Shown: piece after piece, positions 101 through 460 of the stretch
How the letters are laid out: the number at the start of each line of letters is the position of its first letter
Position numbering within the stretch: position 1 is the first letter of the stretch
NCBI RefSeq assembly: GCF_003334305.1
Contig: NZ_QOWS01000075.1
DNA: 460 nt
Reading direction: 5' to 3' (one strand)
Source of the DNA: Escherichia coli
GTDB lineage: Bacteria; Pseudomonadota; Gammaproteobacteria; Enterobacterales; Enterobacteriaceae
Made by a program: the position numbers and the translations under genes
The notes under the pieces: model-generated
The model's database searches: none
What the model was told of the DNA's origin: nothing
Seen by the model: only the letters and a program-made list of their open reading frames with translations

Positions 101-112
101 TTGACCTGTGAA
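81..112 (-). promoter_or_regulatory. Predicted RNA stem-loop (13-bp stem, 6-nt loop) enclosing the tnpA initiation codon and SD-like sequence; candidate translational-occlusion structure
   Basis: Minus-strand transcript 5'-UUCACAGGUCAAA-UGAUAC-UUUGGUCUGUGAA-3' (plus coordinates 112 to 81). All 13 stem positions pair: 11 Watson-Crick plus 2 adjacent G-U wobbles. The tnpA AUG (100-98) sits at the stem/loop junction and the SD-like CAGGU is in the 5' arm. On the plus strand the same two positions are A-C/C-A mismatches, so the structure is complete only as minus-strand RNA. Confidence 0.5.
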
Positions 113-155
113 ACGATTACAGGCATTTAAATTCCAGTTAAGACCAGGTGGTCAA
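101..155. promoter_or_regulatory. Candidate overlapping divergent promoters: TTGACC (101-106), palindromic AT-rich ATTTAAAT (125-132), GGTCAA (150-155)
   Basis: Two -35-like hexamers TTGACC (5/6 match to TTGACA) face each other on opposite strands, 18 and 17 bp from a central 8-bp palindrome ATTTAAAT that could serve as a weak -10 (TTTAAA, 4/6) in either direction. Pattern match only; the -10 is poor. Confidence 0.25.
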
Positions 156-460
156 CAGGAGTGTGAAATGAGGCGCTTCGCAGGCGCATGTCGTTTCGTT
201 TTCAATCGTGCTCTGGCACGTCAGAATGAGAATCATGAGGCCGGTAATAAATACATCCCTTACGGGAAAATGGCTTCCTGGCTGGTTGAGTGGAAAAACG
301 CCACTGAAACGCAATGGCTTAAAGATTCGCCCTCACAGCCATTGCAACAGTCACTGAAAGACCTTGAGCGGGCTTACAAAAACTTCTTCCGGAAGCGGGC
401 TGCTTTTCCCCGATTCAAAAAGCGGGGACAGAATGATGCATTCCGCTACCCGCAGGGCGT
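108..460 (+). CDS. tnpB: IS200/IS605-family TnpB (OrfB; OMEGA-type RNA-guided nuclease), N-terminal ~117 codons; gene continues beyond window position 460
   Basis: Plus-strand frame 3 is open from the TGA at 102-104 to the window end. Translation from GTG 108: (M/V)KRLQAFKFQLRPGGQQECEMRRFAGACRFVFNRALARQNENHEAGNKYIPYGKMASWLVEWKNATETQWLKDSPSQPLQQSLKDLERAYKNFFRKRAAFPRFKKRGQNDAFRYPQG. This matches the conserved TnpB N-terminal pattern (KAxKFRLxP...Q...G.xRFVxNxxL ... WL ... LQxxLKxLxxAxKNFF ... FPRFKKK ... FRYPQ), e.g. as in ISDra2 TnpB. The conserved block begins about codon 5 after GTG 108, supporting 108 as the start although it has no obvious SD. An alternative start is ATG 168, preceded by AGGAG at 157-161, which would give a protein 20 residues shorter. 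Possibly E. coli IS609 insQ/ydcM-like; that identification is from memory and unverified. Confidence 0.92.
   Translation, partial: MKRLQAFKFQLRPGGQQECEMRRFAGACRFVFNRALARQNENHEAGNKYIPYGKMASWLVEWKNATETQWLKDSPSQPLQQSLKDLERAYKNFFRKRAAFPRFKKRGQNDAFRYPQG
140..150 (+). repeat. 11-bp exact direct repeat AAGACCAGGTG, copy 2 (inside tnpB 5' region)
   Basis: Identical 11-mer at 18-28 and 140-150. Copy 2 abuts the GGTCAA -35-like hexamer at 150-155. Confidence 0.6.
157..161 (+). promoter_or_regulatory. Shine-Dalgarno-like AGGAG, 6 nt upstream of in-frame ATG 168 (internal or alternative tnpB initiation site)
   Basis: AGGAG at 157-161, spacer TGTGAA, ATG at 168-170. Canonical SD sequence and spacing. 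It lies inside the conserved TnpB reading frame if GTG 108 is the true start. Confidence 0.5.

Follow-up and report, generated by a model that had tools for sequence, protein, structure and literature searches.

A probable GTG start on a leaderless mRNA for tnpB (insQ) of the Escherichia coli insertion sequence IS609

Introduction

Where does translation of tnpB begin in the Escherichia coli insertion sequence IS609? The question is raised by a 460-nt stretch of E. coli DNA (contig NZ_QOWS01000075.1), hereafter the window, which is the centre of IS609, an element of the IS200/IS605 family, and is found in many E. coli chromosomes at 100% identity. The original prediction for this DNA had left three possibilities open, namely a GTG at position 108 lacking a Shine-Dalgarno (SD) sequence, an ATG at position 168 with a strong one, or both. 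The ambiguity is not borne out in that open form. We consider it probable that GTG 108 is the real, orthologous start of tnpB (insQ in E. coli K-12), that RefSeq is right in choosing it, that the mRNA is leaderless and that ATG 168 most likely encodes no more than an internal Met. The missing SD sequence would then have a specific cause: there is none at GTG 108 because the mRNA has no leader.

Results

A window position p corresponds to position 1503549 + p of the K-12 MG1655 chromosome (NC_000913.3). There, IS609 is annotated as a mobile element at 1503161-1504908, with insQ (ydcM, b1432) at 1503657-1504865 and a tnpA pseudogene, yncK, on the opposite strand at 1503218-1503649; four bases distinguish the K-12 copy from the window, and the three that fall in the tnpB frame are all synonymous. 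The 5' part of the tnpB coding sequence (CDS) occupies 108..460 on the plus strand and continues past the window end. The whole gene is 1209 nt long and encodes 402 aa from GTG 108, the start used by RefSeq and the Prokaryotic Genome Annotation Pipeline (PGAP), as in the RefSeq CDS of loci L001, L002 and L003 and of b1432 in NC_000913.3. The start region comprises TGA 102-104, CCT 105-107, GTG 108-110, AGGAG 157-161 and ATG 168-170, the last lying 6 nt past AGGAG; the positions first given for the TGA, GTG, AGGAG and ATG were all exact. Read from GTG 108, the protein begins VKRLQAFKFQLRPGGQQECE-MRRFAG, where the M is Met21, encoded by ATG 168.

Orthology points to GTG 108. In a scan of one genome per species, Gamma- and Betaproteobacteria, together with a few other phyla, gave 80 loci, at amino acid identities of 59-93%. 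Of the 75 loci analysed from outside E. coli, 73 have ATG at the codon aligned with GTG 108; the remaining two have GTG and ATT. The tnpB-only variant carried by E. coli plasmids and Citrobacter also has an ATG start. In a more distant set, drawn from a library clustered at 50% identity and comprising its 150 best representatives, 87 proteins start exactly at the residue aligned with codon 108, about 20 further ones start within three residues of it and only 4-5 start at Met21; Met occupies the codon-108 column in 97 of 125 representatives. A conserved domain beginning at or after the residue encoded at 168 had been named as a refuting outcome, and this test clearly fails; homolog N-termini begin at 108. 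Nor is there an in-frame ATG, GTG or TTG upstream of 108 in the intact O157:H7 element (L003), where the TGA is replaced by TGG, and GTG 108 is therefore the 5'-most canonical start.

The protein domains begin at the same place. Pfam PF12323 (HTH_OrfB_IS605) aligns its model positions 1-47 with residues 1-48 of the GTG-initiated protein (E 3.4e-14), and position 2 of the NCBIfam IS200_TnpB model aligns with residue 5. A protein initiated at ATG 168 joins the NCBIfam TnpB models only at positions 15-20 and so loses positions 1-14 to 1-19. The alignment with ISDra2 TnpB of Deinococcus radiodurans is colinear from residue 3, residue 3 facing residue 3. In the AlphaFold2 model of InsQ (mean predicted local distance difference test score, pLDDT, 85) residues 2-12 form a strand and residues 15-44 a helix, both at pLDDT 90-96, with Met21 inside the helix; codons 1-20 (108..167, plus strand) thus encode WED strand beta1 and the first turns of REC helix alpha1. 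In ISDra2 TnpB the WED beta-barrel is built from residues 1-12 and 117-176, with REC inserted after strand beta1, and N4 stacks onto the first guide:target base pair of the heteroduplex (PMC10097598). A start at Met21 would therefore delete a barrel strand together with the first turns of helix alpha1. The earlier claim that codons 108-167 encode the conserved TnpB N-terminus is borne out by PF12323 and the ISDra2 alignment, as is the warning that annotating ATG 168 would remove 20 conserved residues. Such database entries exist: the start at MRRFAG is used in one NCBI protein (P0003) and in several cluster representatives. Within E. coli, among proteins called at 402 aa and hence with disrupted copies left out, distinct substitutions per site number 0.32 for residues 2-20 vs 0.36 for residues 21-116. 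All motif residues are invariant among 108 E. coli protein variants, and codons 2-20 of the window, K-12 and O157 copies show two synonymous and one non-synonymous substitutions.

The transcript appears to begin on the start codon itself. As had been stated, GTG 108 is without an SD sequence: its anti-SD pairing of -0.4 kcal/mol ranks 40 of the 53 ATG, GTG and TTG triplets in the 1209-nt gene, essentially none. The clade as a whole shows weaker SD pairing at its starts than the background, with a mean of -1.2 kcal/mol vs -2.3 kcal/mol at internal ATGs. What is found instead is a promoter element. Of 75 unique relatives, 68 carry, 6-7 nt ahead of the start, a hexamer that agrees with TATAAT in at least five of six positions, and in 32 of them the match is perfect; among control internal ATGs (n=1213), eight match at 5/6 and none perfectly. 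The junction of the relatives reads ...CAT AGACCAAAG TATAAT n6-7 ATG..., and in the window the corresponding -10 hexamer is TATCAT (95..100, plus strand), 7 nt upstream of the start. The 7-nt spacer, or discriminator (101..107, plus strand), holds the allele-specific TGA 102-104; its sequence is variable, and its length is 6-7 nt in 69 of 75 relatives. Hexamers resembling a -35 element (at least 4/6) occur in 33 of 76 relatives vs 11% of controls, a moderate enrichment. The tnpB-only variant, with unrelated upstream sequence, still has TAAAAT, 6-7 nt and ATG. Two such loci, both without tnpA, are L086 1452-1592, on plasmid pDEC8E-1 next to the hok/ProQ-FinO region, and L005 in Citrobacter amalonaticus.

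Published data place a transcription start site (TSS) at this position. Romero et al. 2014 (PMC4681348) mapped 5'-triphosphate ends of E. coli BW25113 against U00096.2 by differential RNA sequencing (dRNA-seq), and their Table S2 contains the entry FWD_(II)-1501681. The offset from U00096.2 to NC_000913.3 is 1976, as derived from the bracketing genes (racR, 1418265 to 1420241; end of dicA, 1646365 to 1648341), and the dicA TSS shows that the forward coordinates of Table S2 are 1-based. This TSS, which is enriched by tobacco acid pyrophosphatase (TAP) treatment, therefore converts to 1503657, the first base of insQ and the G of GTG 108 (108..110, plus strand). That table lists about 0.3 forward TSS per kb locally, a density at which such an exact coincidence would have a chance probability of about 3e-4. 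A tnpB transcript starting downstream of 110 had been named as the result that would exclude GTG 108; the K-12 TSS falls on 108, give or take about 1 nt. The E. coli gene therefore has a TSS on its start codon (in a single class II dataset), a -10 box at TSS distance and no SD sequence, and it has 5'-GUG where 73 of 75 relatives would have a 5'-terminal AUG. From its sequence, IS609 tnpB of E. coli appears to fit the leaderless architecture, not its efficient form. RNA polymerase would initiate at G108 from TATCAT 95-100, the transcript would begin 5'-GUG AAA CGA..., and the ribosome would load on this 5' end, as with other leaderless mRNAs, and initiate on the 5'-GUG.

Several points weigh against this reading. 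In E. coli the -35 region matches poorly (2/6), and a scan for the strict sigma-70 consensus returned no promoters in the region, the promoter being visible only through the relatives. The TSS comes from one dataset, where it is 'class II', that is, TAP-enriched with no visible step in bulk RNA-seq, and the conversion of its coordinate could be in error by 1 nt. Class II status means weak transcription, which is probably why G108 is absent from the five class I leaderless mRNAs that the authors name. The Cappable-seq supplement has no entry at 15036xx or 15037xx, in a table that is possibly incomplete. Leaderless mRNAs are efficient in E. coli only from 5'-AUG, GUG being 'much less efficient' (PMC9031893), poorly used and sometimes undetectable (PMC9031893, PMC8459731), and very little full-length protein is therefore predicted from this allele. 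For insQ, no record from ribosome profiling or N-terminal proteomics was found. The constraint comparison within E. coli, confined as it was to 402-aa calls, also belongs here. Searches for insQ, ydcM or b1432 in the TRAINSPOTTER N-terminomics and complementary Ribo-seq small-ORF supplements gave no match, which is uninformative either way, and the kasugamycin translatome gives ydcM values that are low, noisy, near 1 and equally uninformative.

By SD pairing, ATG 168 is the strongest initiation signal in the gene, as first claimed: its -7.1 kcal/mol ranks first of the 53 triplets. The claim does not hold beyond pairing. The AGGAG (157..161, plus strand), which gives the best anti-SD pairing in the gene, is made by the Gln17-Glu18 codons CAG GAG; in close enterobacterial relatives it occurs only with those codons and is lost with CAA or GAA. 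Synonymous codons have removed it in L006, L012, L045, L047, L049, L050 and L080, and in relatives at 59-68% identity the pairing energy at the site is that of the background. ATG 168 (168..170, plus strand) is the first AUG of the leaderless transcript and is in frame, and it encodes a hydrophobic position inside helix alpha1. Position 21 is Met in 73 of the 78 loci of the IS609-like clade and is replaced by Ile, Leu or another residue in five (L014, L027, L040, L055 and L083). Across the 150 representatives the column holds Leu in 64, Phe in 34 and Met in 28, a pattern that marks it as a likely hydrophobic core position, not a conserved Met.

RNA folding also argues against the site. Two predicted mRNA hairpins, 131-162 and 165-197 (131..197, plus strand), hold AGGAG and AUG 168. 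In the transcript starting at G108, AGGAG is paired with UUCC 132-135 (probability of being unpaired, P(unpaired), 0.21) and AUG 168 lies in the second stem (P(unpaired) 0.03). The unfolding cost of the ATG 168 site is 20.1 kcal/mol, at the 96th percentile of gene windows, vs 4.9 kcal/mol for the 5' end. A GC-rich hairpin (GCGCTTCGCAGGCGC; window 173-187, plus strand) follows directly after ATG 168, within the footprint of an initiating ribosome; it shares sequence with the conserved RRFAGA codons and is missing from relatives in Erwinia, Serratia and Klebsiella. As a second start for dual initiation, ATG 168 is in frame and has its own ribosome-binding site (RBS; AGGAG, 6 nt, ATG), and neither is conserved beyond coding need or accessible. 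It does not look like a selected initiation site; it is most likely an internal Met codon, and its SD sequence a coding by-product.

The signals around the start vary among E. coli copies. Position 104 is A, G or C, so that the TGA at 102-104, which was said to bound the frame upstream, does so in this allele and not elsewhere, reading TGG in the intact O157:H7 IS609 and TGC in another copy. Protein calls of 421 aa in ENA at first resembled an upstream extension; they read Trp at 102-104, and their Met falls at TGC 51-53 of the window. They probably derive from TGG-bearing copies like the intact O157 element and may alternatively reflect a code-4 reading of the TGA. An exact 60-mer around GTG 108 is found in 2514 E. 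coli records, and the same IS609-context 60-mer with ATG in none, in the two allelic backgrounds tested; in this 60-mer screen ATG is confined to about 45 records, all of the tnpB-only variant. The IS609 common in E. coli carries three altered signals (TATAAT to TATCAT, tnpB ATG to GTG and tnpA ATG to GTG), and other E. coli copies keep TATAAT or the tnpA ATG. Serratia plymuthica and Klebsiella indica are examples of relatives that have TATAAT and ATG at both starts. Weakened in this way, the E. coli signals would be expected to hold TnpB expression very low. At the yhgE-hslO locus of strain AVS0717 (L004 2501-2956) we found an IS609 remnant that has lost 1 nt at window position 122 and carries several substitutions within codons 1-20; it retains an intact 382-aa open reading frame (ORF) from Met21, which PGAP annotates as insQ, and at least 135 records contain remnants of this type with an identity of 99% or more. 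The version at this locus without the frameshift keeps TATAAT and the tnpA ATG.

The window also holds a divergent gene absent from the original prediction. The 5' part of tnpA, encoding a Y1 transposase, occupies 1..100 on the minus strand with its RefSeq start at ATG 100..98, as seen from RefSeq features, translation and NCBIfam. The translation begins MILWSVKKETDIRRGRHCVFLMHVHLVF... and matches transpos_IS200 at 145.7 bits (cut-off 55); in the exact-match locus tnpA is truncated to a pseudogene, and it is a pseudogene in K-12 as well. A minus-strand/frame-2 ORF at 26-130 had been entertained as the C-terminus of tnpA, translationally coupled to tnpB, and was dropped, as tnpA is on the other strand and divergent. 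The RefSeq start of tnpA is only 7 nt from GTG 108 and is probably five codons too long, judging by comparison with relatives. The codon aligned with Val6 of RefSeq TnpA (GTG, 85..83 on the minus strand) is ATG in 46 of 48 relatives, in which the codon aligned with ATG 100..98 is not a start, and two other E. coli copies keep ATG at Val6; ATG 100..98 was created by chance through the change of TATAAT to TATCAT in the tnpB -10 box. With the ancestral tnpA start, 22 nt separate the two genes.

A -10-like hexamer for tnpA, GATACT (93..98, minus strand), with TATACT or TATAGT as its counterpart in relatives, lies 7 nt ahead of that ancestral start, and a minus-strand hexamer of at least 5/6 at 6-8 nt spacing is found in 36 of 48 relatives. 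The tnpB and tnpA -10 boxes overlap by 4 bp (window 93-100). The K-12 dRNA-seq table lists no reverse-strand TSS here, where tnpA is a pseudogene. The clade therefore appears, by comparison of its sequences, to have a back-to-back pair of leaderless genes with overlapping -10 boxes: in relatives the overlapping TATACT, 7 nt and ATG would drive tnpA and form a compact pair with the tnpB promoter. RNA polymerase presumably occupies one orientation at a time, so that the overlapping boxes would compete, which suggests that initiation of tnpA and of tnpB is mutually exclusive.

The two gene starts are also the arms of an inverted repeat (80..113; TTTCACAGACCAAA / TTTGACCTGTGAAA), found by RNA folding. 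An RNA spanning both arms forms a 14-bp hairpin; on the minus strand it folds at -19.9 kcal/mol (z -3.4), and in a read-through plus-strand RNA it leaves GUG 108 with a P(unpaired) of 0.0002. The A to G change at 104 in the intact O157 element turns a U.G pair of this hairpin into C-G. The pairing is patchy among relatives, and it arises partly because both proteins begin Met-Lys. A smaller plus-strand hairpin at 105-123, holding GTG 108, was demoted as a translational operator; it is unconserved, and only its 3' two-thirds are present in the G108 transcript. Further upstream, a terminator-like hairpin (GCCGGATATCGGT) followed by a T-run (window 61-82, plus strand) lies antisense to the 5' codons of tnpA and could stop outside transcription from entering tnpB; relatives do not obviously preserve this sequence as a hairpin.

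The encoded protein matches curated family models of TnpB. NCBIfam guided_TnpB (NF040570) matches at 386.7 bits (cut-off 100), with residues 7-372 aligned to model positions 1-388, and precomputed Pfam domains in InsQ are PF12323, PF01385 and PF07282. The protein has RuvC-type GLDAG, IEDL and NAD motifs and a CxxC...CxxC motif, all visible in its sequence. The AlphaFold2 model has the TnpB/Cas12 fold (WED, REC, RuvC and zinc-finger TNB), and Foldseek places TnpB structure 8H1J first (E 2e-30), then 8IAZ and 8EXA, then Cas12f. The adjacent, divergent Y1 (HUH) tnpA gene and the RefSeq name both assign the element to IS609.

Several further observations concern the 3' part of the gene and its homologs. 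An Rfam scan found no RNA family match within or near the window. A sub-threshold match to RAGATH-18 (25.4 bits against a gathering score of 44.9) lies at L001 3743-3786, at the 3' end of tnpB and outside the window, where the scaffold of the guide RNA (omegaRNA) is expected. Baggett et al. 2017 reported that ribosome-footprint density for ydcM is 4- to 7.7-fold higher after the stop than within the ORF and called it a mis-annotation. These post-stop footprints map past the insQ stop, at about 1504866-1504908 of NC_000913.3, outside the window and at the expected position of the omegaRNA scaffold; they may be TnpB-protected or structured omegaRNA fragments. A TnpB homolog, P0124 (58% identical), ends in a long stretch in which the peptide AGGLSRQR is repeated in tandem, and the E. 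coli InsQ variants P0002 and P0014 have internal duplications near the zinc-finger region; these repeats may be real tandem duplications or assembly artefacts.

Discussion

With the start shown to be orthologous, the N-terminal domain boundary placed, the -10 geometry found conserved and the K-12 TSS positioned, we regard the annotation question as largely settled in favor of GTG 108. The strongest challenge is that ATG 168 might be the real, possibly dominant start in E. coli, where a 60-nt leader and a strong SD sequence would give a 382-aa TnpB without beta1, alone or alongside the full-length protein. We think this unlikely, though it deserves a serious hearing: the site has the best SD in the gene at an optimal 6-nt spacing, is the first AUG on the mapped transcript and in frame, competes with a leaderless GUG that E. 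coli uses poorly (PMC9031893, PMC8459731), keeps AGGAG-ATG in 8 of 11 enterobacterial relatives, and is the start of the 382-aa ORF in the frameshifted chromosomal copy that PGAP calls insQ. Set against this, synonymous changes do away with the SD, most of the family has Leu or Phe at position 21, few sites in the gene are as strongly structured, and codons 2-20 show no relaxed constraint in E. coli. A product that lacks WED beta1, including the equivalent of N4, and six residues of helix alpha1 would, from the models, be unlikely to fold or to act as a nuclease. No evidence gathered here positively supports dual initiation, and a functional short isoform seems highly improbable. A version in which one leaderless transcript yields both a trace of full-length nuclease from the 5'-GUG and a 382-aa regulatory form from AUG 168, for example titrating omegaRNA or blocking the full-length enzyme, is a long shot. 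If it were true, the change of codon 1 from ATG to GTG would be a switch toward the short form, fixed in every IS609-context copy resolvable by the 60-mer screen of 5,426 genomes, and the frameshifted copy that encodes only 382 aa (at least 135 genomes) would be a domesticated short form.

Two other readings question the transcript or the copy. GTG 108 could be used, independently of an SD, on longer transcripts from within or beyond tnpA or from host read-through, the 5' end at G108 being incidental. The poor -35 region, the weak class II TSS and the A/U-rich sequence ahead of GTG 108 would allow it, but any RNA that includes 80-107 would lock GUG 108 in the 14-bp hairpin, and the terminator-like hairpin and T-run at 61-82 stand in the way. 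K-12 lists no other forward TSS for about 4.8 kb upstream, and the fixed 6-7 nt spacing of the -10 box in 68 of 75 relatives would be left unexplained; we hold this reading to be very improbable. It is rather improbable, too, that this copy is a decaying relic effectively untranslated from either codon, for which the start question would have no functional answer. A tnpA pseudogene in the exact-match locus and in K-12, the weakening of both tnpB signals (GTG and TATCAT) with a weak TSS, and the low and noisy ydcM values of the kasugamycin translatome are in keeping with decay. Yet thousands of genomes keep an intact 402-aa ORF, whose N-terminus shows no excess amino acid change, the same GTG/TATCAT configuration is present in the intact IS609 inserted in the TetR gene of O157:H7, and the element reaches up to seven copies per genome.

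The start of this gene matters for what the gene encodes. InsQ is the TnpB of K-12 itself, an ancestor-type RNA-guided nuclease of Cas12, and a copy of the window is present in 4,996 of 5,426 complete E. coli genomes, about 92%; no account of native InsQ expression was found in the literature searched. Fixing the start at GTG 108 spares databases and users a 382-aa protein without its core beta-strand, and makes the logic of native tnpB expression directly testable: a minimal -10 box, a leaderless mRNA and an overlap, on opposite strands, with the -10 box of the transposase. The arrangement of the junction appears conserved across Beta- and Gammaproteobacteria, which suggests that the transposase and guide-RNA nuclease genes may compete for one RNA polymerase binding site when they are transcribed. 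The E. coli lineage would be a natural experiment, in that both leaderless start codons have gone from ATG to GTG, a change expected to throttle expression in this host. Open-access literature on promoters or leaderless mRNA of IS609, insQ or TnpB held nothing on this architecture, which is weak evidence of novelty. We regard the conserved back-to-back pair of leaderless promoters as a modestly novel element and the question of the start codon itself as ordinary.

The closest structural relative considered, ISDra2 TnpB (PDB 8EXA, 8H1J and 8BF8), shares the family and fold of InsQ (Foldseek E 2e-30 to 1e-25), a colinear N-terminus and the placing of beta1 (residues 1-12) in the WED barrel ahead of REC alpha1; it is about 33% identical and has Ile at the position of Met21. 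Leaderless regulators of E. coli mobile elements (lambda cI, Tn1721 tetR and the prophage genes racR, dicA and ymfK) resemble insQ in having a TSS at or within a few nt of the start and no SD sequence, and racR, dicA and ymfK were defined as leaderless in the same dRNA-seq dataset that holds the insQ TSS. Their mRNAs start with AUG, whereas that of insQ starts with GUG, has a class II TSS and was not listed by those authors as leaderless. Unlike these regulators, the IS609 junction would have two leaderless genes diverging from overlapping -10 boxes.

In Tn5/IS50, the shorter Inh protein has been demonstrated to arise from an in-frame internal start and to be functional (Tnp/Inh). ATG 168 of tnpB is similar in that an in-frame internal start could give a second, N-terminally truncated protein; it differs in that its 382-aa product is hypothetical, that its RBS is not conserved and that the truncation would remove a core beta-strand and not a separable domain. 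IS200 tnpA and IS10/IS50 are protected from outside transcription by hairpins that sequester their start sites. The inverted repeat at 80-113 of IS609 would, by the folding model, likewise sequester start codons in read-through transcripts; unlike the hairpins of those elements, its arms are the starts of two divergent genes and its pairing is patchily conserved.

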